Origin: a virus
Direction: 5' to 3' (one strand)
IMG/VR virus record: IMGVR_UViG_3300022744_000001
Location: 66,022 to 130,021 of that record
DNA: 64,000 nt
Each line of letters begins with the position of its first letter. The stretch's first letter is position 1. Shown piece by piece: positions 263-18,799 of the stretch. The translations under genes and the position numbers were made by a program. The notes beneath the pieces were generated by a model. The model did no database searches and was not told where the DNA came from. It worked only from the letters and a program-made list of their open reading frames with translations.

Positions 263-298
263 CTCAGAAGAACGCGTGAGGCCGCCCAACCCTATACT
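263..298 (-). promoter_or_regulatory. M1 start-proximal motif (TATAGGG-N13-GCGTTCTT...ATG, minus orientation)
   Basis: matches the reiterated M1 consensus; positioned ~30 nt upstream of ATG 249. Confidence 0.5.
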
Positions 299-1808: not shown

Positions 1809-1975
1809 CAAAGCGAGTGAAGCGCGAGACTGTTGCAGCTGGGGGAGTGGTCCTGGCGGGGGCTAAGTTCACCTGTACCAAATGCCACGAGACCAAACCC
1901 GCATCCGAGTTCGGTCTTCGCACCATGCAAGACGGGACGGTACGCAACCAGCCCCAGTGCAAGGTCTGTCGCTAG
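1805..1975 (+). CDS. small zinc-ribbon protein (56 aa, CTKCH...CKVC)
   Basis: ATGA overlap with stop of upstream gene; below ORF-track size cutoff, read manually. Confidence 0.3.
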
Positions 1976-2391
1976 AACCACAGCTGGGAGAACGGGACGC
2001 TCTTCTCGCTCTCCCTCCCGTAGCGGTACCGAAAAGCAACGGTGGCGCGGCGGGGGCCAACCTTCGTGACCTTACCGGTGCGGAACCCAGTCGGGTCTGA
2101 GCCCGAGGGGAACATCACGAAGTCGCCCACCTTCGGGACCACCTTCAAACCGTTCGCGACTACGTACCCTTCCCAATGGGCCAGGATACGAGCGTCGTCC
2201 GAGCAGGAGGCATCGATCGAAGCGTCTCCGAACCGACCCCCGGTGAACACGATGCGGGAGCTTCTCTCGAGCACCCAGGTGGGCTTACCGTTCACCAGCT
2301 GGGCCCGACGCTCGAGCTTCCCTTCAACAACCTTGGCTGAGAGCTTGAGCCCGTTGCGGCTCACGCGAACCAGTTTGGATAGGTCTTGCAT
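1972..2391 (-). CDS. hypothetical protein (139 aa)
   Basis: ATG 2391 preceded by GAGGGGGAG; 1-nt gap to upstream stop. Confidence 0.5.
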
Positions 2392-2392
2392 G

Positions 2393-2623
2393 TTACTCCC
2401 CCTCATGCATCTTCTGGGCGGCTTCGGTCACGCCGGTGATGTAAGCGCGGACGCGATCACCGGTGATCTCCTCGTCCTGAGCCATGAAGAGCGCCAAGAT
2501 CCTGGCGGAGATGAGGCCCCACTGAACGTCTTTCGAGACGTGACTCCAACCGGCACCGAGCGTCTTCTTGGCTCCTTCGATGCAGTCCTTGGCCATTTGC
2601 TCGTTCTTGCTCATCTTCGCCAT
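2393..2623 (-). CDS. hypothetical protein (76 aa)
   Basis: ORF track; GAGGGTGAAAC RBS; variant M1 (TATAAATGG...GCGTTCTC) upstream. Confidence 0.5.
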   Translation of the reverse strand: MAKMSKNEQMAKDCIEGAKKTLGAGWSHVSKDVQWGLISARILALFMAQDEEITGDRVRAYITGVTEAAQKMHEGE

Positions 2624-2653
2624 GGTTTCACCCTCTGAGAAGAGAACGCGCAG

Positions 2654-3346
2654 CTACAGCCATTTATATGTCACCCTGTTCACGATTCTGCCGATTGCAG
2701 GTTGTTTGACTTTGTACCTGTCTGCAAGAGCTTGTTGGGTGTAGCTCCCGGATGCCCACAAGCTTCTAATCTCAACTACCTGTGTTTCATCGAGAGACCT
2801 ATGAATGCAGGACAAGGCCATTTTGTGTTTGGTTTTGGTTGACGGGGGTTTACGCCCCTCCTCGAGACCTTTGAGTTGAGCCTCAGTAGCTTTACGCCTT
2901 TTCGCAGCCGCTGAAAGCCTTGTGCGGGTTTCAGCCCTAACCTCCTTGCCTCTGTGGGCGGCCCCAATTTTGGCTTTGGTTTCGGCAGACCTCTTTCGCC
3001 CCTTGAGGGCTGCTCCACGACGTTGGGCAGCCTCTTTGGTCACGTGATAGCGCTCACCCCCTGTTGTGGAGTTATATCCGTGAGGGGCTAGGCTATGGAG
3101 AGACCTAATCCAGAATTGTTCCGCGGCATTCAACGCAATTTCGTTTGGGCAGGTTTCAAGAATCTCTACCCGGAACCCCTCAATGCCGTATTTCCTCAAA
3201 GCACGTGCAAATGGGTGTTTCCCGCGCCCGCGAAACGCATCTCGAAAATGTGTGTAAACGCGCGCACTAAGGCGTTGCACTGTCCTGCCGACGTACACTT
3301 TCCCACTTACTTTGTGGGTAAACGCATAAATGACCACAGAGTCAAT
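2654..3346 (-). CDS. GIY-YIG homing endonuclease with NUMOD3-like repeats and C-terminal HTH; free-standing, lower GC than neighbours
   Basis: VIYAF...GKVYVGRT GIY-YIG block, two ETKAKIGAAHRGK / ETRTRLSAAAKRRK NUMOD3-like repeats, C-terminal HTH; start uncertain (GTG ~3337 or ATT ~3346). Confidence 0.7.
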   Translation of the reverse strand: MDSVVIYAFTHKVSGKVYVGRTVQRLSARVYTHFRDAFRGRGKHPFARALRKYGIEGFRVEILETCPNEIALNAAEQFWIRSLHSLAPHGYNSTTGGERYHVTKEAAQRRGAALKGRKRSAETKAKIGAAHRGKEVRAETRTRLSAAAKRRKATEAQLKGLEEGRKPPSTKTKHKMALSCIHRSLDETQVVEIRSLWASGSYTQQALADRYKVKQPAIGRIVNRVTYKWL

Positions 3347-3354
3347 ACCCCAGA

Positions 3355-3768
3355 TTAATCCTCGTCCATCATCATGATCGTGATGACCGGCTCTCCGTTG
3401 TCGCCGGGGCCGCACACGGCCTTGAGGGTCGTCAGGGTGGCACGGATGCGCTTGCGCACCACGTAGACCTGGAACTCGATGATGCTGCCACGACCACCGC
3501 GAGCGATCGCCATCCGGAGCATGTGCAGGATGTCCCAGAGACGGCCGTTGAGGTTGTTGCAGGCGCGCTCGGCGGCCGGGGTCAGCTGGATGCACTCGTT
3601 GAAGACCGTGGCCGTGCAGGCGACGTGGAACTTGAAGCCCGCCTCGCGGACCAGGTTCCCCATCTCACCCTGCATCAGGTCCACGAGAACCCCGTCCTCG
3701 ATAGCCTGAGCGCGAGTGTAAGTGTGGATGACTTCGGCGCCTTCGAAGATGTTGGTATTGTTTTCCAT
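3355..3768 (-). CDS. hypothetical protein (137 aa)
   Basis: ATG at 3768 directly preceded by M1. Confidence 0.6.
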   Translation of the reverse strand: MENNTNIFEGAEVIHTYTRAQAIEDGVLVDLMQGEMGNLVREAGFKFHVACTATVFNECIQLTPAAERACNNLNGRLWDILHMLRMAIARGGRGSIIEFQVYVVRKRIRATLTTLKAVCGPGDNGEPVITIMMMDED

Positions 3769-3804
3769 GTCCTGGTAACGCAGAGGGTCGAGGGTTTCTA
3801 TACC
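3769..3804 (-). promoter_or_regulatory. M1 motif (TATAGAAA-N13-GCGTTACCAGGAC-ATG)
   Basis: consensus copy abutting ATG 3768. Confidence 0.55.
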
Positions 3805-3817
3805 AAGCCAGAAGAAA

Positions 3818-4021
3818 TCAACACGGACCGCAGAGGGACCAGTCCCCAACGGGGAGAACCTTGACGGCCGGGCTCTCCTTCGTGAGGTTGAGCTTACCCG
3901 CCTCTTCTTGAGCCTCCTGTTCGGAGTCACAAGCGAAGACGATGTGCCAGGAGAACACGGTCTCCCACACATTGCCGTTCATCCGAATCCCTTTGGACGA
4001 TTTCACCCAGATATTGAACAT
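3818..4021 (-). CDS. hypothetical protein (67 aa)
   Basis: ATG 4021 followed upstream by M1 (4022-4072) with AGGAGCGAG RBS. Confidence 0.5.
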   Translation of the reverse strand: MFNIWVKSSKGIRMNGNVWETVFSWHIVFACDSEQEAQEEAGKLNLTKESPAVKVLPVGDWSLCGPC

Positions 4022-4072
4022 GGCTCGCTCCTGTCAAAAGAACGCGCGAGCCCGCCCCGGTCTATACTCGGG
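4022..4072 (-). promoter_or_regulatory. M1 motif (TATAGACC...GCGTTCTT...ATG)
   Basis: consensus copy. Confidence 0.5.
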
Positions 4073-4457
4073 GGAGGTTGCTCAGTCCCGGGTCAGCAAC
4101 CTCGAGCTGCTCTGAGACCGAGGCCACTGTGATCAGACAGTGAGCCAGGTTCTGGCGGTCCTCTTTCCCCAAAGGCATGTCCCCAAGGAGCCGGTTCGAG
4201 ATGACGTGGATCGCCTGGAGCTGGCAGCCCTTGATGAGGTAGACCCGACGAGCCCCCGAGTCGTTATGGGAGTCCACGAAATCCAAGGGTTGCACTACGG
4301 GGGTTACTCCCAGGAGTTCAGCGGGGCTCGGGGTTTCCGGAGTGGGACGACTCTCCACAGACTTGCGCCAGCTTTCGGCCGCGATGGGGTCAGCGAAAAC
4401 CATCACGGGAAGCTGGGAGCCGTCTTGGGACGCCAACTTTGCAAGGTAAATGGTCAT
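4062..4457 (-). CDS. hypothetical protein (131 aa)
   Basis: ORF track; no M1/M2; followed upstream by 120 bp lower-GC spacer with two AATCC/GGATT hairpins. Confidence 0.4.
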   Translation of the reverse strand: MTIYLAKLASQDGSQLPVMVFADPIAAESWRKSVESRPTPETPSPAELLGVTPVVQPLDFVDSHNDSGARRVYLIKGCQLQAIHVISNRLLGDMPLGKEDRQNLAHCLITVASVSEQLEVADPGLSNLPRV

Positions 4458-4576
4458 AGGTACTCGCGTTTTTGTGTTAGGCGTCGAGGGGTCACCGCCG
4501 TCACAAGCCGCAGCGTAACAGAATCCCTGAATGGGATTGTTTCAAGAAAGTAAAATGTGCACGAATCCTCGGGGAT

Positions 4577-4933
4577 TTAGCTCAAATGTAACACTCGAGC
4601 CCTGATTTCCCGTGCAAGTATCCGCCATTGATCATGCTCGTGGGACTCCCAGCGCTCGAGCATCGACGCGACAAGTTCTCGTGAAGTTCTGCGTAGATGT
4701 TCAAAGGTATGAGGGTCGCTAAAGCGACGAGGGGAGCACAAAACCAAGGGGTCTGTAACTACCCCGATCTCATGGACTGTCATCGAGTGCAGGGATGCAA
4801 GCACTCGTCCCGACGGGAAGAATGCTTTCAGCAGAGAGGCCACATCTTCCTGGGTGTGGTTGCCAAGCTCCACAATGACCCAGTTTCCGTAGCCGCCCTC
4901 CTTGTACTTGTAGAGCAGGTGGCTCACGCTCAA
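4577..4933 (-). CDS. hypothetical protein, TTG/GTG start, weak
   Basis: ORF track only; no ATG start, no motif. Confidence 0.25.
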   Translation of the reverse strand: MSVSHLLYKYKEGGYGNWVIVELGNHTQEDVASLLKAFFPSGRVLASLHSMTVHEIGVVTDPLVLCSPRRFSDPHTFEHLRRTSRELVASMLERWESHEHDQWRILAREIRARVLHLS

Positions 4934-5013
4934 GGCGGCGGATAAGACGATCCAAAATTCAAGTACAGGTTGTGAGGCCCTCGAACGTTAATTAGGAAAA
5001 CGTAGGAGGTTCT

Positions 5014-5205
5014 ATGGGAGTTGACCCTAGCTATCTGGCTCGAGCCGTGTTGCGCTGTGTCGCAGTTGCCGTGACGATGGGCCTTGTAGTGGGCTTCAGT
5101 GGGTATCTTCATTCAAAGAGTGCGAGCGTAGGCATTTTGCTTGGGTTGTGGAGTGCCGGTCTTTTCCTCATGAATGGAGATGTAGTTCCGCTCCCGAAGG
5201 ACTGA
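5014..5205 (+). CDS. small membrane protein (2 predicted TM helices)
   Basis: strong GTAGGAGGT RBS 6 nt before ATG; hydrophobic segments. Confidence 0.5.
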   Translation: MGVDPSYLARAVLRCVAVAVTMGLVVGFSGYLHSKSASVGILLGLWSAGLFLMNGDVVPLPKD

Positions 5206-5245
5206 GAAAACTTTTGTGGGGTTGCTCCCGTAGCAGGGAGCGAAC

Positions 5246-7034
5246 CATGAAAGTCAGGAATCTCACGCCAGGTGCCATCTACCTGAAGGATCTCAAGATC
5301 GACCAGGTTTCGATCGGGAGCCTTCGCGGCGAGGACCGATACATTGGTCCTGGGGCAACGATTTACCTGGAGGACACCGACGTAGTCCTCCGTAGCGCGT
5401 CCAAGGGCGACATCTTTGCGCTCGCCCAGGCAGGCATACTCGAGGTCGTCGAGGAGCCCCTCAAGGTAAACGAGAACGGCGAACTCGACGTCCCAACCCT
5501 CAACGTTGGGGCCGACGCTGTCATTCACGGAAACCTTACTGTTGACGGTACCATCAACGGCAGTAGTGGCTCTGTAGACCTTACCGGTCTGCCTCGAGAC
5601 GCCGTCATCAGTCAAATCCCTGACCAGTACACGTCCTTCAACGACCCTTCAACGGTGCTTACCATCCATGCGAGCGACAACGCTCCAGCGGATGATATCC
5701 CGTCCTCTCAGCGAGCGGGCAAAGTCGTTGTCCGTGGCGGCCACGGCGCTTCGGCCATCTCAGGCGACAACTACGGCATGAGCGGAGGTGCCGTCGAAAT
5801 CTACGGGGGTGACGGCGGAACCCCCTCGGGGTTTGCAGTTAATGGAGCAGGCGGGCCCATCACAATCAAGTCGGGCAACGCTCTTGGAGTAGGGAACAAC
5901 GGGGCAGGCAGCATCACCCTTGTGACCGGGCACCAAGGCTCTCAGATGGTGAACGGCGAAGAGGCGAAGGTTACTATCGCCCCCGCTAACGCAAACGCCT
6001 CCCGTAGCGGTTCGATCGCACTGATTAGCGGTGTGAAGGTCACCGACTACAACACCGGCGCGATTGTAGGAGGTTGCGTTTACAACCAGTTTTATGGCGC
6101 AAACGATTTTGGCTACAGGGCAGGGAACAGCTACCTTTCGGCTGGCCTCGCGGCTGGCCCCGGAGCCGACGGTTACGGAGGTAACAACATCGTCAGAGGG
6201 GGTACTGCTGTCTCAGTTGACCCCAACGTCCCTGCTGGCGGTGACGTAATCATTGCTGCTGGTCGAGCCATTGCAATCGCCAACGATCTTTCAAGCGGCG
6301 CGACAGACGGCACGAAGAGCGGTGATGTTATCCTCACCCTCAGCTCAGAGTTCTCGACGAATAGCCAGGAGCTTTGGGGCAACTGCGGTGGTCTCACCAT
6401 CAGCGGTGCGGATGGCATCGCCTACTGGCAGTTGCACTCGGCGGGGACGTACTCGAGCACAGACCACGCGACGCCTACCACGAATTTGCAAGGCTCTCAG
6501 CGCTTGCACGTTCTGACCCTGGCCCAAGAAACTGCCATGGCCCCGTCGTTCGAGGCCGCTGTGCCCGACACAGGGTTCCTGCATTATGTCGATGAGAACC
6601 CGATCTTCCAGGACCCAAGTATTGCCAGCGGCGGGTACCAAACAGGGTTCCGAGGTCGTCGATCTGGGGTTTATGGCGGCCTACCCTCGGAGATTGGTGG
6701 CAGCGGGACGCCCGGGTCGGTCACTCGCTCCATGGCTCGCGTCTTCTCAGGCGGCTTCAATGACGGGGACCTAACCGGAGGCGAGATCACCGTCACGCAC
6801 AACCTGTTTACCTTCGGACCTCAAGTCATGCTCTGGTTGCCAAAGTTCGACTTGAGTAACAACGTGGTTGGGCTCCGAGCTGGGGTACTCGGCACAGACT
6901 ACAACCTAGAGATCCCGCTCGGGGATAACAACGCAACCATTGACCCCTTCAACACTATCAAAGTGGTGTTGCTCGCACCCATCGACCCCACCAACTCCGG
7001 TTACTCGGCGCTCATCACCATCGTCGGCTTCTGA
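5246..7034 (+). CDS. glycine-rich beta-helix / tail-fibre-like protein (595 aa)
   Basis: GGAGCGAACC RBS, hairpin before start; long Gly/Asn/Thr-rich repetitive sequence typical of phage fibre/tailspike or secreted beta-helix proteins; function inferred from composition only. Confidence 0.6.
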
Positions 7035-7046
7035 AGGAGAGGCTCC

Positions 7047-7475
7047 ATGGACTTCCAAAACATCACCTCAGCTCCGACTTTCACTCAGCTTGTGGCGGCC
7101 TTTACCGCGGCCCTTCGTGAGCCGAAGCCAACGATCGTCATACCTGCCGGAACTCCATTTGCTGGGGCGTCGCATACAGCGCCTGGCCCTGACCTGTCGA
7201 AGACCACGATGAAGGCCCTACTGACTCGCTCAGTTCTCACCGGCGGGCTACAGAAAGCCGTGGCCATCTATGCAGGCATGTCTGAGGGCGACCGCAAGAA
7301 GCTCCAGGCTCTCGCAAAGACCGAAACCGGCAAACCAATCCTCACTGCTTTCGCTGAGGCTGATGCGGACGACCTGTCCATTTTCTCGGCGGACGCAGAC
7401 AAGATCGACAACAACCTGACGTTGGCAAGAGGTTGGCTTGTCGATGTCGATGCGACGCCTTGGGTCGCTAACTGA
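7047..7475 (+). CDS. hypothetical protein (142 aa)
   Basis: GGAGAGG RBS; ORF track. Confidence 0.55.
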   Translation: MDFQNITSAPTFTQLVAAFTAALREPKPTIVIPAGTPFAGASHTAPGPDLSKTTMKALLTRSVLTGGLQKAVAIYAGMSEGDRKKLQALAKTETGKPILTAFAEADADDLSIFSADADKIDNNLTLARGWLVDVDATPWVAN

Positions 7476-7830
7476 ACTCCAGCGGTGTACGCCCTTCATG
7501 GGCATGTACTCGAACTACACCGCGAAAAATCAATGCTGGAACTGCCGTGGCGAGAAGCAGGTTACCCGGGAAGACATGAACGGGGACTCGCACTCGCACA
7601 CGTGCGGCTTCTGCGGCGGCACCGGTCTCCCCAACGACGAGCAGCGCCACAAAGCGCAGCTCGAGGCCGAGGGCCTTTGCATCGACTGCGAGTTCCCCGA
7701 AGCCGACCACCCGAACGGGCAAGGGTTCCCTTATGGGTGTCTTCGGCTTCTCACGAAGCAAGTGCATCGACTCCAAGGGCAAGTCGAGGAGCAACAGTTT
7801 CAGCTCAGGTCTCGATTTGGCCGCTGCTGA
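7438..7830 (+). CDS. Cys-rich zinc-finger protein with DnaJ/anti-TRAP-type CxxCxGxG motif (HTCGFCGGTG)
   Basis: ORF track; AAGAGGTTGG before ATG 7438; start ambiguous (7438/7497). Confidence 0.4.
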   Translation: MSMSMRRLGSLTELQRCTPFMGMYSNYTAKNQCWNCRGEKQVTREDMNGDSHSHTCGFCGGTGLPNDEQRHKAQLEAEGLCIDCEFPEADHPNGQGFPYGCLRLLTKQVHRLQGQVEEQQFQLRSRFGRC

Positions 7831-8330
7831 TTGACTGGGGTGTCACGACCGCGCTTGTCGTTGTGGTAGCCCCATTTGATCGTCTCGAGGAGAGCCTCAA
7901 GCTTCTCTTGGACTCCACGTTCAACCTCGACGCCCGTCGCATAACGAAAAGCGCCATACCCCCGGTGCGTCCCGCGAACGACAAACACCTCGTTGGTTTT
8001 GTCGTCGATGACGGTGAGTTCCCAGTTCCAGTCGAACGAGCCATCGCGGTCCCATCGAACCAAGGTCAACCCAACATTCGGGAGCTTCTTGGGCTTCAAA
8101 ACGTGGGCTTCTACTTCAGGCGCAGGGTTGGAAACCGCTACTGGGGCTTGCGTAGGCACCCGCTGAGTGGGCTCGCTCAGAAGAAACGATGCCGGTCTCG
8201 TTTCTGGCTTTGCGTGTAACTCTCCATCGTCGTCCTGACGCCTTCGGAGTACGAGCACGAAACCGAACACCAGCACAACAGCGGTTAGGATGTACGGCAG
8301 ATGAGCTACAGCCATATCGAGGATACTCAT
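7800..8330 (-). CDS. membrane protein (N-terminal TM helix)
   Basis: internal ATG with GAGG RBS; hydrophobic N-terminus. Confidence 0.5.
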   Translation of the reverse strand: MSILDMAVAHLPYILTAVVLVFGFVLVLRRRQDDDGELHAKPETRPASFLLSEPTQRVPTQAPVAVSNPAPEVEAHVLKPKKLPNVGLTLVRWDRDGSFDWNWELTVIDDKTNEVFVVRGTHRGYGAFRYATGVEVERGVQEKLEALLETIKWGYHNDKRGRDTPVNQQRPNRDLS

Positions 8331-8339
8331 AGAAACCTC

Positions 8340-8454
8340 AGTCAATGATGCCGAAGTACATAGCTCGAACGACACGAAACACAACGTATGTCGCGGCGGC
8401 CCAAAGCATCACGCTGATCGGCGCGAGAATGTAGCTGTAGAGTTCTTGACACAC
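8340..8454 (-). CDS. possible 38-aa single-TM peptide
   Basis: GTG start, tight spacing between flanking genes; below ORF-track cutoff. Confidence 0.25.
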
Positions 8455-8457
8455 GAG

Positions 8458-8940
8458 TCAACCCCACGAGAAGAAGAGGCGGATCACGGGGGTCGTAGGG
8501 GAGAGCCCCAATCCCTTCAACTTCGCGCGAAGCTCCTCGAGCTGAGGTCGGAAGTCTTTGTCTATGGGGATCTCGGCAGGGTAGACGTTGAAAGAATACG
8601 TGCCCTCAGACTCCTTGGCGTAGGGGTCGTTGACACAGAACATCATGCCTCCGCCCGGCTCGTTGTACCCGCCGATCCTCGCCACCTTCGCTCCAACCCT
8701 TTTGGCGACCAGCTCAGCCAGCTCATGGGCTCCATCATCGAACCGTTTCCCGTCGATGACATGCCAGGTCCGACGGTGACGATCGACGACTTTCACTGAC
8801 CCTTTCTTCGCGCCAGTCCTTTCATCGAAGCGGTCCTCCATGTGGGACTCTTCGGGAATCTCGTGTTTGAACGGAGCTTCGAACTGCGCCTCGGTAAAAA
8901 CGAAGCCAATTCCCAGTCCAGCTGTGTATGAGGTGCCCAT
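8458..8940 (-). CDS. hypothetical protein (160 aa)
   Basis: ATG 8940 preceded by M2 variant GGTGTAAC-N6-ATG. Confidence 0.55.
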   Translation of the reverse strand: MGTSYTAGLGIGFVFTEAQFEAPFKHEIPEESHMEDRFDERTGAKKGSVKVVDRHRRTWHVIDGKRFDDGAHELAELVAKRVGAKVARIGGYNEPGGGMMFCVNDPYAKESEGTYSFNVYPAEIPIDKDFRPQLEELRAKLKGLGLSPTTPVIRLFFSWG

Positions 8941-9114
8941 GCCCTTGTTACACCGCAGGGGAGGGCAATCGAAATTGCACCCCTCAAGTAAGCCAGTGTC
9001 GCGATGCCTAAGCTAAAGCATAAGGGAGACGCGGATGGTTCATACTGAGCTGCAATAGTTTCCGTTCCCCGAATTTTCTTGTGCTCGGGGTAAGTATCCG
9101 TATCGAGGTGCTCT

Positions 9115-10155
9115 ATGCCACAAGCTCCAACCCCACCGTGGGAAGCTGAGAGGCTCGTCGCGCTCGAGAAACTACGTGTTTTCGGGACTCCCGCAGAAGA
9201 GCGGTTTGATCGGCTCACTAGGCTAGCCTGCAAGACCTTCGGGTTGCCTATCGCGGTCCTCGACCTTCTTGGGGCGGATACCGCTTGGCTCAAGAGCACC
9301 CAGGGGTATCACAAGGTTCGAGCGCCCAGGGCGACGTCGTATTGCGGCTACACGATCTTGCAGGAGAACTCTCTGGTGGTGCCGGACGCGCAGCAGGACC
9401 CGCGCCTCTTCGACAACCCGTACGCCCAGAATTTCCGCTTTTACGCAGGGGTTCCCCTTCGCAGTGCGGGGATGCCAATTGGGGCCTTCTCGGTTTCCGG
9501 CTACACCCCAAGGCTCTGGACAGAGAATGACACCCAGGCCCTCTACGAGTTCGCTCGAGTTGCTGAGTTCGAACTTCGGATCACGAAACTCAGCGAAACC
9601 CAACTCTGTCTCGCAGCAGAGAACGAGGTCAGATACCGTCCCCTCGTTGACGACTTGACGAAGACCTGGAACAAGACCGCGATCATCGAAATTCTGGGGA
9701 GGGAGCTTCGCAAAGCCGCGGAGGCGGACGTCTCCACTGGCATCCTGATGCTCGACATCGACCACTTCAAGAAGGTCAACGAGGAGCGGGGCTACTCCGC
9801 CGGAGACACCCTTTTGCAGGGCCTGGCCGAGCGTCTTCGCGCCGTTCTGCGGCACTCGGACAGCCTGGGGCGGTATGGGGGCGAGGAGTTCGTTGTTGTG
9901 CTTCCTCGATGCACCAGGGAGGACGCTCTCGAGATTGCGGAACGAGTCCGAACCGCGGTGGAGAGCAAACCCTTTGGGGCTATCTCGGCCACGGTATCTG
10001 TGGGGGTCACCGTGGCCGCGGCCCCCTCCCAGAACCACGCCGTTCTACTCCAAGCCGCTGACTTGGCCCTCTATCGAGCCAAGCAGAGGGGTAGAAACCG
10101 GGTCGAGTCTCGTTGGACAACCCCCTCGTTCGCCGCGCTCCGGGCTACGAAGTAG
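9115..10155 (+). CDS. GAF-GGDEF diguanylate cyclase (GGEEF active-site variant, RxxD I-site present)
   Basis: RYGGEEFVVVLP motif, RHSD five residues upstream, N-terminal GAF-like region; GAGGTG RBS. Confidence 0.8.
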   Translation: MPQAPTPPWEAERLVALEKLRVFGTPAEERFDRLTRLACKTFGLPIAVLDLLGADTAWLKSTQGYHKVRAPRATSYCGYTILQENSLVVPDAQQDPRLFDNPYAQNFRFYAGVPLRSAGMPIGAFSVSGYTPRLWTENDTQALYEFARVAEFELRITKLSETQLCLAAENEVRYRPLVDDLTKTWNKTAIIEILGRELRKAAEADVSTGILMLDIDHFKKVNEERGYSAGDTLLQGLAERLRAVLRHSDSLGRYGGEEFVVVLPRCTREDALEIAERVRTAVESKPFGAISATVSVGVTVAAAPSQNHAVLLQAADLALYRAKQRGRNRVESRWTTPSFAALRATK

Positions 10156-10156
10156 G

Positions 10157-10618
10157 TCAGACCGAAGGCACCAGGGACTCAATCGCCCCGGCGGCATGGG
10201 CGGGCCCCAGGATGCGGCGACGGTCCGAGCTGTCGATGAGCACCACCAGGAAGCGGCTGGAGAGGCTCTTGATGATCTGGGTGCCCTCCATCGTGTCTCG
10301 CGTGATCCGGGCCGCTATGGCCGTCAGGCCAGTCTTCTCCTCGAGCTTTCGGAGAGACTCGGTCCGGTCGAAGACGACCCCAACCCGGTCAGGCCGGTGG
10401 ACACTGTCGATGGCGCCGAGCAGCCACAAGCACTTGTACTCCTGGCAGGCTGTGGGCCGAGTCGCATAGCAGTCGCACTTGTGGTTCATCACGTGCGAGC
10501 ACATCTGAAAGGTGCTCTTCTGAATCTCGGGCACCCCCAAGGCGGTGCAGCACTCGTTGCACTGACCGCAGGATCGTCCTTGGGGTTTGGGGGCTTGGGG
10601 GAGACGTCGTTTGCTCAT
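10157..10618 (-). CDS. CxxCxxCC (YkgJ-type) putative zinc/iron-chelating domain protein
   Basis: SCGQCNECC motif plus downstream Cys cluster; AGAGGAGAGC RBS. Confidence 0.55.
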   Translation of the reverse strand: MSKRRLPQAPKPQGRSCGQCNECCTALGVPEIQKSTFQMCSHVMNHKCDCYATRPTACQEYKCLWLLGAIDSVHRPDRVGVVFDRTESLRKLEEKTGLTAIAARITRDTMEGTQIIKSLSSRFLVVLIDSSDRRRILGPAHAAGAIESLVPSV

Positions 10619-10650
10619 GCTCTCCTCTGTGCGCGAGACCAGGCGGAATT

Positions 10651-11061
10651 TCAGCCCTTCGTCGCTTTCTTCTCGGCCCGACGAAGTTCTTTGCGGACGC
10701 GCTTGAGGCGGTCAGAAGCTTCCGGGTAGCCCGGCATGCTCCAAGAGTCCTTGCGAGCCTTCATCGCCCGACCCTTCAACGCCATCACGTGCTTGCGGGC
10801 GGAGGCGTAACGGGCGCGAAGCTCGTCGAGGGTCAGCTCCTTCTTGGCGGCCTTCGGCTGGTTCTGGCCCATGTAGACGCGGAAGCCGCGGGCTTCCAGC
10901 TCAAGGCGAAGGGCCACCTTCGCGGCGTTGACGGCGACTTCGTCGCTCTCGCTCGTGGTGAGCGTCGGGACGTACCCGTTTTTGAGGGAAGCTTCGAGCT
11001 GGCTCCAGCTCGAGAAGGCAGTGACCGTGGTCGTCAGGGTGTTGAGTGCTTGGCTTTCCAT
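10651..11061 (-). CDS. hypothetical protein, Lys-rich C-terminus (136 aa)
   Basis: ATG 11061 abuts M1. Confidence 0.6.
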   Translation of the reverse strand: MESQALNTLTTTVTAFSSWSQLEASLKNGYVPTLTTSESDEVAVNAAKVALRLELEARGFRVYMGQNQPKAAKKELTLDELRARYASARKHVMALKGRAMKARKDSWSMPGYPEASDRLKRVRKELRRAEKKATKG

Positions 11062-11097
11062 GTCCTGGTAACGCGCAGGGGGAGGGGTTTCTATACT
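11062..11097 (-). promoter_or_regulatory. M1 motif (TATAGAAA-N13-GCGTTACCAGGAC-ATG)
   Basis: consensus copy. Confidence 0.55.
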
Positions 11098-11360
11098 GCC
11101 TCGGTCGGGCCCTCATGTTTTTCCGTGCAGGGGCAGCGGTAGGTTGCAAGGTCCTCCTTGGACCGCCACTCCCCTTTGCCCTTGCAGTAGGGGCAGTTGG
11201 GGTCCGGAAATTGAAGGACAGATGGGGTAGCCTGAAGCTCCCGGCGAGCGGCGTCGATGTGTCCCCGGCACTCCCGAAGCGTGAGGTAACACCGGCGCTC
11301 GCTGTGGCCGGTCTCCTTGGAGAGCATCTTCGCCGCGTCTGTGACCAACATGGAACTCAT
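11091..11360 (-). CDS. Cys-rich zinc-finger protein (89 aa)
   Basis: ORF track; ATGA overlap with upstream gene. Confidence 0.45.
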   Translation of the reverse strand: MSSMLVTDAAKMLSKETGHSERRCYLTLRECRGHIDAARRELQATPSVLQFPDPNCPYCKGKGEWRSKEDLATYRCPCTEKHEGPTEAV

Positions 11361-11575
11361 GCTTCGTCCTCGTCGTCAAGGAGTTCGATCTCTTCTTCCA
11401 TGAGGGCCTGTTCCGCCCCCATGACCTCGTCCGCCCCACACTCGGAGCAGGGGTAGCCTTCCGCGTCGGGCTCGACGTCCCCATAGTTCCAGGCGTAGCA
11501 AGCCAAGCAGATGCCGTCGTCTCCAGCAACGTGTTCCTCGTACGCTTCCTGGGTCAGCTTCGGTTTATCAAGCAT
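11357..11575 (-). CDS. acidic zinc-ribbon protein (72 aa)
   Basis: internal ATG with GGAAGGTGG RBS. Confidence 0.45.
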   Translation of the reverse strand: MLDKPKLTQEAYEEHVAGDDGICLACYAWNYGDVEPDAEGYPCSECGADEVMGAEQALMEEEIELLDDEDEA

Positions 11576-11774
11576 TGGCGGCCACCTTCCCGGCTTCCGT
11601 GATCTCGAACACCCGGTAGGAGGCGTAGGTCTGGTCGTTCCAAAAGCTGGTTGCCAAACCCTTTTCGACCAGGGCTTCGAACAGCTTGATTTCACTCTCT
11701 TTGCCTGGGGATTGGCGGCCCTTCTCGGCCAGGAGTGTGAGACGGCGGGATTGCGCTTTGGTCAGTTCAGGCAC
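11568..11774 (-). CDS. small winged-helix-like protein (GTG start)
   Basis: GAGGAGGAAG RBS then GTG overlapping upstream stop. Confidence 0.35.
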   Translation of the reverse strand: MPELTKAQSRRLTLLAEKGRQSPGKESEIKLFEALVEKGLATSFWNDQTYASYRVFEITEAGKVAANA

Positions 11775-12183
11775 TGGCTTCCTCCTCGGACTCTTCCTTG
11801 GAGTTCCCGTCGGCCGCCTCGAGTTCGACAGATTCAACTTCGTCGGCCGTCTCGGTCAGCTCGCGCTTGAGCGCCTTCAGGTTGTCAAGGGCCTCGTCAA
11901 GAGCCTCGACCGCCGCCGTGTCCTTCTCCTTCTTGGCCGCCTTCTTGGCCGCCTTCAAGGCTTCCACGAGAGTGGGGAACTTGGCGGAAGCGTTCAAGAT
12001 GTTCGCCTTGAAGTCTGCGTCGGTCTCGCAGGAGACAGCGCACTCGAGGTCAGACTTCATCTCGCGGGCAAGGTCGCGACAGGTGTCGTCCATGAGGTCG
12101 GCGGTTTCGACAGCAGCGACGACTTCCGCCATCGCACTCTCAAGGTCCATCGCGCTCGACTGAAGCTCTTCAAACTTCTCCAT
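11767..12183 (-). CDS. acidic coiled-coil protein (138 aa)
   Basis: ATG 12183 with AAGGAGAAC RBS and M1. Confidence 0.6.
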   Translation of the reverse strand: MEKFEELQSSAMDLESAMAEVVAAVETADLMDDTCRDLAREMKSDLECAVSCETDADFKANILNASAKFPTLVEALKAAKKAAKKEKDTAAVEALDEALDNLKALKRELTETADEVESVELEAADGNSKEESEEEASA

Positions 12184-12232
12184 GGCCCGTTCTCCTTGTC
12201 TTGAGAACGCGCAAGCCCTCGAGCTTCTATAC
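12184..12232 (-). promoter_or_regulatory. M1 motif
   Basis: TATAGAAG-N13-GCGTTCTC...ATG. Confidence 0.5.
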
Positions 12233-12568
12233 TGGCCTTGTCGCTTTTCTGCGCGCCTTCGTCGGGTAGCTCTGGCGAGGGGCCGCCTTCCGGATACCTG
12301 GCCGGGACTCCGGAACGTCACTCAGATTGGCGGTAGCCCAGATAAATGCGAGCGAATCCCGGCTCTTGTTCGTGTTGGGTACGTGCTGAACTACGTCAGC
12401 GTGGGGGATTTCTGCGTTCAACCGGGTCTCGATGTTCACGCAAAAATAGCGCTTCTCCCCGTTGCTCTCCCGAACCTCGAACACGAGATACTCGTGCTCC
12501 GCAGTGTGGATCACGTCTCCCGCTGCGATCTCCTTTTGGGAGCTAACAAGATACAGTTGAGGGGGCAT
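12227..12568 (-). CDS. hypothetical protein (113 aa)
   Basis: ORF track; GGGGAGAAC RBS. Confidence 0.45.
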   Translation of the reverse strand: MPPQLYLVSSQKEIAAGDVIHTAEHEYLVFEVRESNGEKRYFCVNIETRLNAEIPHADVVQHVPNTNKSRDSLAFIWATANLSDVPESRPGIRKAAPRQSYPTKARRKATRPV

Positions 12569-12802
12569 GGCGTTCTCCCCGGTGAGAGCTTAGCGAAACC
12601 CTTAGCGTTTCCCTGAGCCCCAGCACCGACCACAGTAAGATTGTTGGTGACCGCACAAGCATTTTGTGCAACGTAGCACCAAAACCTTGCAGATCCAGCG
12701 GTAAGTAAGAGCGTGTGGTTGTTTATGCGCTACGGCTCGTGCCGAACACAAAAGCACATCACCCTTATCCGAGAGAAGCTGAGGCGGCTGCAAGAGCTAA
12801 AG

Positions 12803-13162
12803 TCAGCGACCGATATTTTCGTCGCCCAGTTTCGTAGACTCTGCCACAAGAGCCCCAAATTCAACAACTGCGCTTTCGTCTAGTTCCAGTCGCTTCAAGG
12901 CGTTTTCTGCCCAAATGAAGCTCGGGTTGATGAAATATAAATCACAACCATACAGGCTGTCCACGAGTTCTAGTGCACGCGCGAACATGAGAACATGGCC
13001 AACCTCGAGCCCCTCATAGCTTCCGGGCAATCCGGACCGCCAGCGTTCGGCGAGGGCGGCTTTACGGGGGCCCCTCAAATCCAGGACACGAGTACCCGTT
13101 GTGAGGAGGAAGCAGGCAACCAGCGCTTCGGCGGCGGCAATCGCCTCTCTGGGCACAGCTTT
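12803..13162 (-). CDS. hypothetical protein
   Basis: GTG start placed by M2 (GGTGTACC-N7-GTG); ORF track start at 13198 is TTG. Confidence 0.4.
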   Translation of the reverse strand, partial: KAVPREAIAAAEALVACFLLTTGTRVLDLRGPRKAALAERWRSGLPGSYEGLEVGHVLMFARALELVDSLYGCDLYFINPSFIWAENALKRLELDESAVVEFGALVAESTKLGDENIGR

Positions 13163-13422
13163 CACTATTGGAGGTACACCAGGGCGTACGTGAGTCAATG
13201 GTTAGCCGTGCCACCAGACGCCCAGAGCGAAGCCCAGGCAGAAGCAAATGACCCCCAAGAGGACGATGGCGAGGTAGTCCCACCGTGGGGGCAGGACCTC
13301 CTCTTGGGCTTCGGCGTAGATGGGCTTGACCACGAGGGTGGGCGCGTCGCAGTTGCGCCATTCCTCCAACGTGATTTGCCCGTCCACATAGGCTCGGTAC
13401 TGGTCGTAGGCGGGGAAGGTGG

Positions 13423-14301
13423 TTACGGACCCGATGACGCGGCGTCGTCGCACTCTTCGTCTACACCATCCTCGTCCTCCCCCTCGTCTTCGTCAGCGGG
13501 CTCTTCGCCCTCCTCCCACTCCCGCATTTCTTCCTCCCACTCCTTCGCTTGTACCTCGACAACCTCGAGTAGGTTCCGGAAATGCTCCCGGAACCTCGGC
13601 CACTCGGTTTCCTGGCCCGCGTAGTAGCTCGGGCGCCAGAACTGGCGGAAGGTGAGCATCTTGGCCGAGATGAACGCGAACTCGGCTGCCACATCAATCA
13701 TGTGCTCGGGGATGGGTCCCATGTCCTCCAGGATGTCCCAATGCTCGCTGAACCCCATCGTGAATCGGGAGTCGTCTCTCCCGAAGAACCAGGCCCCGGG
13801 GAACTGCTCGGGCGGGTGGCGGCGCTCTTGAGCAAGCTCAGACAGGAGAAGCCTGGTCGGGCTCGGGTCGTTTTCGATCGCGGCAACCAGTTTGTCCTGC
13901 TCTGCCTTCCGCCAAGCCAGATAGCCACGGATGCCCTTCCGGTAGTCTTCGATGGTGTCGCCCGTCGAGCGCCAACCCCTATCTACGGTGCCTTTGAGTA
14001 ACGCTTGCCAGACGTCCTCTCGAACCAACGCTTGCTCAACGAGCGCTCCCCGAGGCGGCGGGTCGGAGTAGCTGAGGCGGGCATTCTCTGTCCCTGGCTT
14101 GGGGGCGACAAGGATCTCCATCGGGTCTCGATAGCTGCCCGACCCGACCGTGATCATCGTGGCGTAATCGGAGAGAGCCTCCTGCGCCGCAGTGAGCTTC
14201 TCGAGACGGTTGACCCCCTCGAACTCGTTCCATCGCACTCGGAAAAGGTTGTGGCGAACCTCATCCACGACATACCCAGGCAGGGAGCCCCCAGGGGACA
14301 T
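13423..14301 (-). CDS. hypothetical protein with acidic (E/D-rich) C-terminal tail
   Basis: internal ATG with AAGGGG RBS after upstream stop. Confidence 0.5.
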   Translation of the reverse strand: MSPGGSLPGYVVDEVRHNLFRVRWNEFEGVNRLEKLTAAQEALSDYATMITVGSGSYRDPMEILVAPKPGTENARLSYSDPPPRGALVEQALVREDVWQALLKGTVDRGWRSTGDTIEDYRKGIRGYLAWRKAEQDKLVAAIENDPSPTRLLLSELAQERRHPPEQFPGAWFFGRDDSRFTMGFSEHWDILEDMGPIPEHMIDVAAEFAFISAKMLTFRQFWRPSYYAGQETEWPRFREHFRNLLEVVEVQAKEWEEEMREWEEGEEPADEDEGEDEDGVDEECDDAASSGP

Positions 14302-14383
14302 TTCGAACCCCTTGGCCACGAGCGCTTCCTGAAGGCGCCCCAATGTGGGGAGCCCTTTGGCGGGCTCCGGTGGAACCCAGACC

Positions 14384-14827
14384 TCAGCAGTGAGGGCTTT
14401 GCTCTCCCCTTTTTGCTCCACCCGCAATCTGGTCGATGCGTTCGAAGAGCCGTTCCATGTAGATGGAGCGGTAGTTCCGCTGCACCATCACTCGACGTTC
14501 ACGGATGGCGTGCAGAAGGTGGTCAAAGGTCATGTCCTTCGACGTCGGCAAATCGTGGTAGGAGTTGTCCCCTTGCCCGACTTCAACCAGGTCGCGCTTG
14601 AACGCGAGCATCCACGCATCTCGAGCTGGCCCCTCTTCCACTTTCTCAACCGTGCCGTAGTCGTTGTACGTGGCCTTCAATGGGAAGTTGCGCGGCCCCC
14701 AGACCTCATGGATGTAAACGGGTGCGCTTTTCTTGTCGGGCGCCTCAGTGAGCAGGAAATACCGGACTTTGGTTCCACCAGGAATCGGAAGACCGGAGAT
14801 TGCACAGGTTAGGTTGAATGATCCCAT
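14384..14827 (-). CDS. hypothetical protein (147 aa)
   Basis: ATG 14827 preceded by M2. Confidence 0.55.
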   Translation of the reverse strand: MGSFNLTCAISGLPIPGGTKVRYFLLTEAPDKKSAPVYIHEVWGPRNFPLKATYNDYGTVEKVEEGPARDAWMLAFKRDLVEVGQGDNSYHDLPTSKDMTFDHLLHAIRERRVMVQRNYRSIYMERLFERIDQIAGGAKRGEQSPHC

Positions 14828-14921
14828 GCTCGGGGTACACCGGTGGTGGTGATTTACTTGTCCTCGGACTTTTGTCGTGGAAGACCTCATTCTCCGAGTA
14901 GCCGCCCGGTACACGTATGCG
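14828..14921. promoter_or_regulatory. divergent intergenic region with M2 copies in both orientations
   Basis: GGTGTACC (minus) and GGTACAC-N7-ATG (plus). Confidence 0.45.
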
Positions 14922-16097
14922 ATGGCCATGGCAGACATTCCCGCTGTAGTGCAGAAGTGGGAATCGTTGATTCAAGCCTATCGAGACGAGGCGCCGAACA
15001 TCGAGAAAGTCGGGGAGTTGTACGAACTCCGCAACAAAGATTACGAGGCATGGCGTGCTCTTGGTCCCGACACGTGGGCCTTCTACGGGCGATGGGAAGG
15101 GAAAACCGTCATCTTCCCCAAAGTCTCGTACGAACTCCTTCGTCGCCTTGGGATCTCCAACGTCTTCCTCTCGCTGCTCCAGCACTACGAGTTGCCACCG
15201 GCCATCCACAAGAAAGTCGAAGCCGCGGCCCGCTTCTACGGTAAAAACGCGCAGAGAATGTCGCGGAAGATCGACGAGGCCGTTGCCCTGTACCGCAAGT
15301 TGTTGACCACGTACGACCAGCACCTTGAACTCGCGAAAGCTGCTCTTACCCAAGGTAAGCCCCGAGGCACGGAGGAGAACAGTACCCAGATCCTCAATGC
15401 GGGACCGTTCAAGGTCGTCAACACGGGGCAGTTCTCTGAGCAGATCATGCAGACTTGCGCAGACGTAGTGCGCAAGGCAGCAAGCAAGCTCCAGAGTAAA
15501 GGGCTCGGCCAGGTTTGCTATGGCCAAGTGCTAGTCTCCAAGCGCGTGGCCGCCAGCACAAGGAACCTCGCATTCTACCGTGTCGCGGACGACGAGCTAT
15601 TCGTCCGAGCTGACCTGAAGGGGGCGGCGTTCAACGAGATTCTCCTCACCGTGCTCCATGAGCTTGGTCACCGCTACTACTTCCGGTTCACCCTGAAGCA
15701 GGCTGAAATCAAGAAGCTCTACTACACACTCAAAGGTCGCAAGGAAGAGTCCGAGGCCCTGCTGGTCAAAGAGGTCCTTGAGGACCCGAACCGGCGGCCT
15801 CAACCTGGAGAAATCGTCGTCCTGAAGAGGGAGACGTACGTGGTGGATGACGTGAAATACGAGCGTGGGGGCTGGCAGGTCAGGATGCATGACCAAACGG
15901 ACCCTAAACTCAAAGCCCACGTCGGACTTGAGCATTGGATTCGCCACAAGGGGTACAAACTCAAAGAGACCCCCAGCGATTTCGTCACGTCATATGCGAA
16001 GACAGACCCCGCCGAGAACTTTGCCGAGATGTTCGCGTACTACTGCGACGACAAGCTCCCCGAGGACCAGGTGGAGATGCTTAAGGCCGTGCTCTGA
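14922..16097 (+). CDS. HExxH zinc-metallopeptidase-like protein (391 aa)
   Basis: LHELGHRYYF motif; start placed by M2-like box. Confidence 0.55.
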   Translation: MAMADIPAVVQKWESLIQAYRDEAPNIEKVGELYELRNKDYEAWRALGPDTWAFYGRWEGKTVIFPKVSYELLRRLGISNVFLSLLQHYELPPAIHKKVEAAARFYGKNAQRMSRKIDEAVALYRKLLTTYDQHLELAKAALTQGKPRGTEENSTQILNAGPFKVVNTGQFSEQIMQTCADVVRKAASKLQSKGLGQVCYGQVLVSKRVAASTRNLAFYRVADDELFVRADLKGAAFNEILLTVLHELGHRYYFRFTLKQAEIKKLYYTLKGRKEESEALLVKEVLEDPNRRPQPGEIVVLKRETYVVDDVKYERGGWQVRMHDQTDPKLKAHVGLEHWIRHKGYKLKETPSDFVTSYAKTDPAENFAEMFAYYCDDKLPEDQVEMLKAVL

Positions 16098-16124
16098 AGG
16101 TATCCCCGACGGTGTAGAGACGGT

Positions 16125-16496
16125 ATGGTTTGCAGACATTCTGACGGCGATCGAAGCTGTACCACGCGATACCCGCGCTACGACCCGCCCGACCCGCCGA
16201 AGACGCCTGACGCGAGCAACTACAGCATCGAGGATGTGATGCGGGTAGGGCGTCACCTTGTGATGAAGGTGAAATACCCCAACTGCTCGAGTTGCGCGTT
16301 CGAGGGCACCAAGATCCTAGTGTTCCTCAACATCTCGGAGCTTGAAGCGCTGAAATGGCGGAAGATCGACCCGCACTTCCGTGACCCCCGAAGGAAGTCC
16401 ACCACGGAGGCTCCGAGCCCTGCGGCCCGCTTCCCAGGGACTCCAGAGGGCTGGGCGGATGCGGTTGCTTACGCAAACTCCAAGGAGAGCAAGTGA
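16125..16496 (+). CDS. hypothetical protein (123 aa)
   Basis: M2 (GGTGTAGA-N6-ATG). Confidence 0.5.
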   Translation: MVCRHSDGDRSCTTRYPRYDPPDPPKTPDASNYSIEDVMRVGRHLVMKVKYPNCSSCAFEGTKILVFLNISELEALKWRKIDPHFRDPRRKSTTEAPSPAARFPGTPEGWADAVAYANSKESK

Positions 16497-16499
16497 CGG

Positions 16500-16787
16500 T
16501 TACGTCTTGGTCGTGAGCTTCGCTTCGACCTTGTCAGCGACCCCGTCTAGCTCCTTGACGAGTCTCTCTATCGTGTCCTTGTCCACTCCAATCCAATCGT
16601 GGTGGAGCTGGAAAAACGTGGTGAGGGCATCGCAGTGCGACAGCATCTCAAAGGCTTGGCCTCGAGTCACTGGGAGAACCAAAGGTGCGGCCGAGCCGCT
16701 CCCCGCCAACGCATTGCAGTCTTCACACCCACGGCTGAGGGCGTATCCCGCCCCGTGCCTTTCGCAAACACCCATTGCTTCACTCAT
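16500..16787 (-). CDS. Cys-containing hypothetical protein
   Basis: ATGA overlap with upstream gene. Confidence 0.45.
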   Translation of the reverse strand: MSEAMGVCERHGAGYALSRGCEDCNALAGSGSAAPLVLPVTRGQAFEMLSHCDALTTFFQLHHDWIGVDKDTIERLVKELDGVADKVEAKLTTKT

Positions 16788-17017
16788 GGTCCAAACCCGC
16801 CCGGCAAAACCCACCATCGAACCCAGAGGCTCTCCACGCGTGAAGGTTTCCGTGTCAGCACAAACCCCGTTGGCCCTTTGGCGAGGACAGAGACTCGCCG
16901 TTTAGACTTTCGGGGCTCGACCCACAGTAGGTAATCCGACGAGGGCAAGGGCTGGGCAAATCGCACTACGACTTGCAGCTGCTTGCGCCGGAACTTCACC
17001 CGCTGCCTCTTTTTCAT
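16784..17017 (-). CDS. basic hypothetical protein (77 aa)
   Basis: M2 (GGTGTAGT-N9-ATG). Confidence 0.5.
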   Translation of the reverse strand: MKKRQRVKFRRKQLQVVVRFAQPLPSSDYLLWVEPRKSKRRVSVLAKGPTGFVLTRKPSRVESLWVRWWVLPGGFGP

Positions 17018-17027
17018 GTAACCGTAA

Positions 17028-17642
17028 CTACACCTTCACGCCGACCTCGAAACGGTGCTTTATGTAGCGGTCGCGCGATTCCCCCTCGAGCGTACTGGGG
17101 AGGGCCCCCCAAGCCCCCTCAGCCTCATGCCCATAGTCATGGTCGAGGAAGACGGTACCGAGCATGTAGTGGTTGAGTTCGTGGATGACGGGGCCGCCGT
17201 TCACCACGGACTGCCGGAATATCGAAGCCCGACAACACAGGAGCGGGATGCGGGGGCCGCCGAAGTTCCGGCCCGTGGACAGGAGCAGCTCGTTGATGCG
17301 GTCCTCGAGCTTCAAGTCGCTCTGCGGGACGTCGTACATTCGGTCGTAGTTCGCATCCTCAGTCACGTGCACCACGATCCACTTCGGCCCTTCTGTCTTG
17401 GCGTACCCCTTCCAGGTTTGGGACAGTGACCAGGACGCCAGGGCCACCGCGTTGGCGATGACTCCCGGGTGGAAAGGGAACATCCCGTCACGATCGTAGA
17501 TCAGCGTGACCCGGTGGCCGAGGTAGTTGCCCTCCATGCGTTGGCCCTCGGGGAGGTTCCACCGGCGCCCCCAGGAAACAACGAAAGCGCCGAGGCCCAC
17601 AACCACAGCCGATGTAACCGCTAGGATGATCGCGCCTGTCAT
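17028..17642 (-). CDS. membrane-anchored HExxH metallopeptidase-like protein
   Basis: N-terminal TM helix; HELNH motif. Confidence 0.55.
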   Translation of the reverse strand: MTGAIILAVTSAVVVGLGAFVVSWGRRWNLPEGQRMEGNYLGHRVTLIYDRDGMFPFHPGVIANAVALASWSLSQTWKGYAKTEGPKWIVVHVTEDANYDRMYDVPQSDLKLEDRINELLLSTGRNFGGPRIPLLCCRASIFRQSVVNGGPVIHELNHYMLGTVFLDHDYGHEAEGAWGALPSTLEGESRDRYIKHRFEVGVKV

Positions 17643-17755
17643 GTCTGGGGCAGATCCACAAACAAATCAAACACCTACCCAATATAGCACTTTGCGACGG
17701 AAAAGACGGGCGGATTACAGATTCTCAAGTAAGTTCCGGACACGGAAAGGGCGCA

Positions 17756-18772: not shown

Positions 18773-18799
18773 GTCCTACCTCTGTGATAAAACCTTCAT

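Follow-up and report, generated by a model that had tools for sequence, protein, structure and literature searches.

A Dcsbis-like GAF-GGDEF protein, a predicted diguanylate cyclase, encoded in the ORFan array of a huge phage-like element

Cyclic di-GMP (c-di-GMP) sets the choice between swimming and settling in many bacteria and controls surface structures that serve as phage receptors. What would a gene for its synthesis do on an element that looks like a virus? The question is raised by a 64,000-nucleotide stretch of IMG/VR record IMGVR_UViG_3300022744_000001 (positions 66,022 to 130,021, here called the window), in which a plus-strand open reading frame (ORF) at 9115..10155 starts with ATG and encodes a GAF-GGDEF protein of 346 residues. 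An earlier, sequence-only reading had called this protein a diguanylate cyclase with an intact inhibitory site (I-site), set in a mobile-element-like array. Its domains and residues make it highly probable that the protein is an active cyclase. We hold with moderate confidence the whole chain of reasoning in which a phage carries this Dcsbis-type GAF-GGDEF cyclase and would raise the c-di-GMP level of its host.

Pfam assigns the protein a GAF domain (PF01590; E = 1.9e-13, 51.5 bits against a cut-off of 22.4) and a GGDEF domain (PF00990; E = 1.9e-39, 135.4 bits against a cut-off of 23.8), and the NCBIfam model TIGR00254 matches with E = 6.6e-44 and 149.6 bits against a cut-off of 37.4 (Table 1). 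Positions 9850-9891 translate to RHSDSLGRYGGEEF, in which RHSD is followed by SLGRY and then by GGEEF; the RxxD sits five residues upstream of GGEEF, the canonical spacing between the I-site and the active site (A-site). All mapped catalytic residues are present and conserved in the alignments with 11 and with 89 homologs. In the numbering of PleD, D214, K219, N222, D231 and R253 are presumably D327, K332, N335, D344 and R366, and we take E257/E258 to be E370/E371, K323 to be K442 and R327 to be R446. The secondary I-site arginine, R277, which we take to be PleD R390, is invariant in the clade described below, and the base-specificity position D231 holds Asp, as in 89 of 90 homologs. The GG(D/E)EF signature is not lost on alignment, GGEEF standing at residues 255-259, and the earlier call of a GAF-GGDEF diguanylate cyclase is borne out at the domain and motif level by Pfam, TIGR00254 and the match to the structure 4ZMU. 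At the level of sequence, the protein has all the features that define the GGDEF family and its Dcsbis-like GAF-GGDEF subgroup.

Among solved structures the best relative is Dcsbis (PA2771 of Pseudomonas aeruginosa; PDB 4ZMU/4ZMM), and 4ZMU matches over the full length (query residues 4-332 against chain residues 8-344, E = 3.9e-61, phmmer). The two proteins share the GAF-GGDEF architecture, with 341 residues in Dcsbis and 346 here, and both carry a GGEEF A-site and an RxxD I-site at identical spacing. An AlphaFold2 model of the cyclase, built with 90 homologs, has a mean predicted local distance difference test score (pLDDT) of 95.6 and a predicted template modeling score (pTM) of 0.91. Its top Foldseek matches in the PDB are both 4ZMU chains (template modeling score 0.87-0.89, root mean square deviation 2.4-2.6 Å, 340 columns, 38-39% identity), a result to be read as support and not as proof, given that 4ZMU was possibly in the AlphaFold2 training set. 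The remaining matches cover the GGDEF half only, with deviations of 1.3-1.7 Å to GGDEF domain structures. The settings of the two proteins differ, Dcsbis being a chromosomal housekeeping regulator of motility, whereas the cyclase here lies in the ORFan array of a huge phage-like element.

Dcsbis makes c-di-GMP and lowers swimming, is more active than WspR or SadC, dimerizes via its GAF helices and requires the GAF domain for full activity; its GAF pocket binds neither cyclic AMP (cAMP) nor cyclic GMP (cGMP), and its ligand is unknown (PMC4937426). In the Dcsbis dimer, the GAF loop of one subunit (residues 120-125) fills the RxxD I-site of its partner, and the full-length protein shows no measurable c-di-GMP binding at the I-site and only weak, competitive inhibition (PMC4937426). 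Because this I-site is blocked by the protein's own GAF loop, an RxxD motif is no proof of product inhibition. By a hand count on the alignment, R251, D254 and R282 of the Dcsbis I-site pair with R246, D249 and R277 here, while R271 of that site aligns with Cys266, next to R265. The stretch VPLR-S pairs with EPLHAS of Dcsbis (chain residues 120-125, again by hand count) and is one residue shorter; the exact register of the loop is uncertain, the numbering of the Dcsbis paper and that of the chain being offset by 4 at the I-site. In the family, where the stretch reads xPLxxS, P114 and L115 show at least 90% conservation, and by analogy the protecting-loop function may be conserved in the cyclase as well. 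The I-site is intact in sequence (RHSD and R277), as the sequence-only reading had it, but product inhibition is not thereby implied, and the nearest precedent would argue against strong feedback.

To place the protein among its relatives, we collected 5,859 homologs. Unbinned metagenome contigs supplied the five nearest (49-59% identity over the full length), and the next tier, at about 44-47% identity, includes sequences from Acidobacteria (AB60, Silvibacterium), Planctomycetota and Mycobacterium. A neighbor-joining tree places the window cyclase (P0001) in one clade with P0002-P0005, P0007 and P0033, sister to a clade with Acidobacteria sequences. Genomic contexts were examined for six members of the clade, that is, all but P0003, which lies on a 3-kb contig only. 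Every one of the six is set in an array of ORFan or phage-like character (the window; locus L005; loci L006 and L007; L008; L125; L126), with Metallophos, MazG-like, DnaB and IstB genes around the cyclase of L008 and PG_binding and MqsA genes around that of L126. A member of the sister clade, P0013, is chromosomal and sits among phosphoglucomutase, XseA, FtsY and RibD genes. Scans with the cyclase returned generic GGDEF proteins only, at no more than 41% identity over the domain in IMG/VR and no more than 37% over the full length in GTDB genomes.

Synteny with window positions 1-20 kb extends to L006, L007 and partly L005, which share 20, 11 and 6 proteins with it, respectively; L008, L125 and L126 have just the cyclase in common with the window. 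Against its syntenic orthologs the cyclase has a ratio of nonsynonymous to synonymous substitution (dN/dS) of about 0.15-0.2, which is indicative only since dS, at about 2, is saturated. Its GC content (0.614) agrees with the element mean (0.613), and therefore nothing suggests recent import; its GC content at third codon positions, 0.73, likewise agrees with that of the element, 0.78 ± 0.07. The cyclase is thus long established and maintained in these elements as a group and neither a recent pick-up nor an assembly chimera.

The element that carries it is best seen in a longer assembly, contig k141_47206 of ENA ERZ27252002, on which an identical cyclase protein is called. This contig has 448,224 bp and begins and ends with the same 141 bp. 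Window positions 1..57,492 correspond to contig positions 390,733..448,224, and the first 141 bases of the contig to window 57,352..57,492. An overlap of k = 141 is typical of a circular MEGAHIT assembly, and the element is therefore probably a circle of about 448 kb; at 448,224 bp it exceeds the 200 kb by which jumbo phages are defined. A codon-usage gene call, in agreement with the stored gene calls of the source contigs, found 132 genes in the 64 kb, mostly of 60-200 aa and with frequent strand switches. The 131 proteins other than the cyclase match 13 Pfam families, some of them weakly, and about 90% are ORFans; the families include two Tad2-like matches, DUF6573, Vault/MVP_shoulder, DUF2158, TacA1, Phage_ProQ_C_like, Multi_ubiq and Peptidase_M10. 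No housekeeping gene and no replication, partition or conjugation family was found among the 131 by Pfam, and the description of the locus as a mobile-element-like array holds. PHROGs gave 15 families for the 131 proteins, nearly all of unknown function, and almost nothing for 20 of the larger ones. The flanks outside the window (about 20 kb) contain ORFans again, plus a NUDIX gene, a DUF4419 gene and a gene of the T4_Y16D family.

The element is likely to be a huge phage. Five window proteins match records of large phages of at least 170 kb, most of them jumbo or huge phages, and for four of the five these are the sole homologs in the phage database. The fifth is an 878-aa protein resembling the major vault protein (MVP); across 91-98% of its length it is 37% identical to counterparts in LR756500, LR756501 and LR756503, uncultured huge phages of 462 kb and 735 kb, and it has no plasmid match. 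A 406-aa protein (14877..16097, plus strand) matches Virus Rctr197k and the 485-kb phage LR745208, and nothing in IMG/VR. A 278-aa protein (51118..51954) matches RsoM2USA, Myxococcus phage Mx1 and Tunturiibacter phage Tunturi_5, and a 168-aa protein (27171..27677, plus strand) finds its matches, at 42-44% identity, in LR756511 and LR745206, huge phages of 595 kb and 635 kb. Finally, a 171-aa protein (39612..40127, minus strand) matches LR745208, Tunturi_5 and gp27 of Bacillus phage G at 33-55% identity over about 80-100 aa. A nucleotide search of window positions 5-25 kb against reference phages gave no match.

In the mechanism that we infer, from enzyme activity and I-site blocking to the phage identity of the carrier, its host and the benefit to the element, the GAF domains would dimerize the protein and so pair two GGDEF domains. 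Each GGDEF domain would bind GTP-Mg through D214, E257/E258, K219, N222, D231, K323 and R327, and the pair would condense two GTP into c-di-GMP and two pyrophosphates. RHSD and R277 would form an I-site that is intact in sequence and, by analogy with Dcsbis, perhaps closed off by the partner subunit through its GAF loop. Output might then stay high until some ligand occupies the GAF pocket. Expressed in an infected cell from a stand-alone, oppositely oriented cargo gene of a circularly assembling element of about 448 kb, the soluble enzyme would raise c-di-GMP and leave the host nonmotile, matrix producing or altered at its surface. The element might benefit through fewer motility-organelle receptors, and so less superinfection, or through a sessile host during a long infection cycle.

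Several observations weigh against this reading of a phage-carried cyclase that raises host c-di-GMP, beyond the caveat on the structural match given above. No capsid, portal or terminase gene was found in the roughly 84 kb inspected (the window plus about 20 kb of flanks). Y227 is the sole departure in the cyclase; 85 of 90 homologs, and Dcsbis, carry His there. The closest syntenic ortholog, P0004 (L006 10001..11014 and L007 9003..10016), identical in two independent samples, has KGDQF in place of GGEEF and the substitution K219T, and it keeps RPED and R277. Since P0004 has lost both GGEEF and K219, catalysis is not indispensable in this lineage. The window encodes no PilZ, EAL, HD-GYP or second GGDEF protein (Pfam, 131 proteins) and holds no c-di-GMP riboswitch, Rfam giving no match of any kind either at the gathering threshold or at E ≤ 1. 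A scan found no sigma-70-like promoter in 8300-10900, and promoter and terminator signals around the cyclase do not exceed the shuffle expectation. The names in the sister clade, the two matches to Tunturiibacter phage Tunturi_5 and a similar GC content point only weakly to a host in the Acidobacteriota.

These observations leave room for other explanations, which differ in the carrier, in the activity or in the product. Since no virion genes turned up in the inspected 84 kb, the word phage draws on scattered homologs and on genome style, and the element could instead be a giant plasmid, another extrachromosomal element or a chromosomal island, with the cyclase as ordinary host-serving regulatory cargo. 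A circular assembly fits a plasmid equally well, and the TacA1-like antitoxin match would suit such a carrier too. We nevertheless regard it as unlikely: the database homologs of the window proteins occur only in the large-phage records described above, the MVP-like protein has no plasmid counterpart, and Tad2-like, Phage_ProQ_C_like and T4_Y16D families are present. Tiny genes on both strands, some 90% of them ORFans, are moreover typical of the accessory region of a huge phage, and the Pfam scan of the window proteins detected no replication, partition or conjugation family. The protein might also be catalytically weak or dead and serve mainly as a c-di-GMP receptor or sponge through its RxxD, in the manner of PelD, which combines a GAF domain with a degenerate GGDEF domain. 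The replacement of His by Tyr at the nearly invariant position 227 would fit this, and P0004 indicates a lineage that tolerates the loss of catalysis while keeping the binding site. PelD-type receptors, in which GAF and GGDEF domains come with an RxxD, resemble the state of P0004, in whose branch catalysis has evidently been given up, to judge from its motifs, with the c-di-GMP-binding motif retained; P0004 may be such a receptor or sponge. PelD, however, is membrane anchored with a degenerate GGDEF, whereas the window cyclase keeps an intact A-site and every mapped metal-, base- and phosphate-binding residue. With full-length Dcsbis showing no measurable binding of c-di-GMP at its I-site (PMC4937426), we find a mere binder improbable for the window protein.

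More remote still is an enzyme that makes another cyclic dinucleotide, such as 3'3'-cyclic GMP-AMP (cGAMP), and could thereby feed or jam a defense of the cyclic oligonucleotide-based antiphage signaling (CBASS) type. GGDEF enzymes with altered product specificity reportedly exist, and in the Hypr type the base-specificity position (PleD D344) holds Ser instead of Asp. The window also has two matches to the Tad2-like (anti-Thoeris) family PF11195 (best E = 1.4e-07), one of them at about 24959..25201 on the minus strand; such genes suggest, by sequence similarity, anti-defense cargo directed against nucleotide-signaling immunity, and hence an element that engages this kind of immunity. The Asp at position 231, kept in nearly all homologs, led us to reject a Hypr-GGDEF, and the closest characterized relative, Dcsbis, makes c-di-GMP. 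PADLOC gave no match for the cyclase or four of its neighbors at E ≤ 0.01. On this evidence a different product is hardly credible. The c-di-GMP-dependent defense role that the sequence-only reading had offered alongside biofilm or motility control likewise finds no support, with no PADLOC match, no c-di-GMP riboswitch and no PilZ, EAL or HD-GYP protein in the window. In the known c-di-GMP-triggered defense, the bacterial TIR-STING type of CBASS, a phage cyclase would trigger the response, not counter it.

The reading that we prefer, a phage-borne cyclase that raises host c-di-GMP, has partial parallels among known systems. Bacillus phage SP-15, with an annotated diguanylate cyclase, and Microcystis phage MaAM05 resemble the present case in that phages exceeding 200 kb encode a GGDEF domain. 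The match of their proteins is confined to the GGDEF domain, covering about half of the query at 31-33% identity. In the reference phage collection no record covers at least 80% of the cyclase, and the Dcsbis-like GAF-GGDEF architecture is therefore absent from reference phages. We know of no functional study of phage GGDEF proteins such as those of SP-15 and MaAM05. Searches of the literature turned up no work on a phage cyclase and nothing specific on jumbo-phage cyclases, and c-di-GMP goes unmentioned in a 2026 review of jumbo-phage biology. Closer in functional logic are DgcK and DgcL of the SXT/R391 integrative and conjugative elements and Dgc137 of the Vibrio alginolyticus island VPII, mobile-element cyclases that alter motility and biofilm formation, with VPII also affecting phage resistance (PMC10672970). 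Like the cyclase here, they are cargo of mobile elements, but their carriers are conjugative elements and islands of Gammaproteobacteria, whereas the carrier here is apparently a virus and the relatives form a clade of their own. With these cyclases of conjugative elements and islands as precedent, it is reasonable to infer by analogy that the window cyclase would manipulate host c-di-GMP. Cyclases on mobile elements are already known, and those encoded by viruses are almost unstudied.

The enzyme itself is ordinary; mild interest attaches to its carrier and to the phage-associated clade, one member of which is degenerate. At present this is an annotation-level finding with a plausible role and no new mechanism. 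Should a giant phage indeed bring into its host a strong cyclase that is hard to inhibit, c-di-GMP signaling would join the processes that viruses reprogram, and a clade with intact and degenerate versions would offer a natural set of constructs for testing this. A bolder scenario, which we think doubtful, is a virus-specific clade of Dcsbis-like cyclases that huge phages infecting soil or freshwater bacteria, perhaps Acidobacteriota, maintain as a host-takeover device. The enzyme would be of high output, with a self-blocked feedback site that the host could not dampen and a GAF pocket gated by a phage or host signal, and at least one sister phage would have turned it into a dead c-di-GMP binder. 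Were this true, phages would both write and read, or sequester, the main lifestyle signal of their hosts.

Table 1. Positions of the cyclase gene, its domains and motifs, and the adjoining genes in the window
Feature	Position	Strand	Basis
GAGG Shine-Dalgarno-like motif, 6 nt 5' of the cyclase ATG	9105..9108	+	Read from sequence
Complete coding sequence of the 346-aa GAF-GGDEF protein, stop codon included	9115..10155	+	ORF list; Pfam/NCBIfam
GAF domain, residues 28-153, putative sensor and dimerization module	9196..9573	+	Pfam PF01590; aligns with the GAF domain of Dcsbis 4ZMU
Residues 113-117 (VPLRS), aligned with the Dcsbis protecting loop	9451..9465	+	Alignment with 4ZMU
GGDEF catalytic domain, residues 178-329	9646..10101	+	Pfam PF00990; TIGR00254; Foldseek
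Codon for Y227, unusual Tyr	9793..9795	+	Translation DIDHFKKVNEERGYSAGDT; column counts
I-site motif RHSD, R246-D249	9850..9861	+	Translation; R in 87/90 and D in 82/90 homologs
A-site motif GGEEF, residues 255-259	9877..9891	+	Translation; kept in all clade members but P0004
Divergent 160-aa ORFan, conserved upstream neighbor of the cyclase	8458..8940	-	No Pfam/PADLOC match
Convergent Cys-rich ORFan, 125-153 aa by start choice, downstream neighbor	10157..10618	-	No Pfam/PADLOC match

The cyclase gene forms a single plus-strand unit flanked by minus-strand genes, with an upstream intergenic region of 174 bp. Its start codon is supported because the N-terminus, MPQAP, is common to the homologs. 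An alignment of the upstream intergenic region with those of relatives shows just patchy conservation beside the start codons. Homologs of the upstream 160-aa ORFan adjoin the cyclase in L005, L006 and L007 (40-51% identity), and a 63% identical homolog of the downstream Cys-rich ORFan lies near the cyclase in L006 and L007, with one 65-aa gene between. Farther upstream, a 595-aa Gly/Ala/Ser-rich protein (5247..7034, plus strand) has repetitive GG-containing stretches reminiscent of a fiber or beta-helix protein. It has no Pfam or PHROG match and is absent at this position in L005-L007, and it may be a variable host-recognition or surface protein.

Some of the phage-matched proteins carry further features. 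The MVP-like protein (30822..33458, plus strand) contains Vault repeat and MVP_shoulder matches (PF11978, 2.3e-20), and its residues 515-801 match structures of the eukaryotic major vault protein (E about 1e-14). Viral MVPs have already been reported (bioRxiv 10.1101/2023.11.10.566534), and the protein here is a high-GC environmental example. Close kinship with the Mahaphages (LR7565xx) was rejected, as only the MVP is shared: the Mahaphage regions around the MVP homolog have no other gene in common with the window, and their GC content is 24-32% against 61%. The 406-aa protein has a weak match to a zinc-metallopeptidase (HExxH-type) motif. The regions matched by the 171-aa protein are annotated as major head protein in phage G and Tunturi_5; the 171-aa protein is itself smaller than a capsid protein would have to be.

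Window position 57,492 is an assembly junction, beyond which the window follows positions 608..7,116 of contig k141_47206, a stretch that equals a separate Logan contig. Contig positions 142..607 (466 bp, with a RecA_N-like 106-aa ORF) are skipped in the window, and two Logan contigs break there too; the junction is either a population or strain variant or a stitching artifact. It lies 47 kb from the cyclase, which is unaffected. ARAGORN calls a 91-nt tRNA-Ala(CGC) at 34565..34655 (plus strand) that overlaps a well-scoring minus-strand ORF at 34615..34980, and Rfam finds no tRNA at this position even at E ≤ 1. The call is probably a false positive, in which case the 64-kb stretch is without a tRNA. 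Among the few confident family assignments in the window is a strong match to DUF6573 (3.1e-32) at 3355..3768 on the minus strand.

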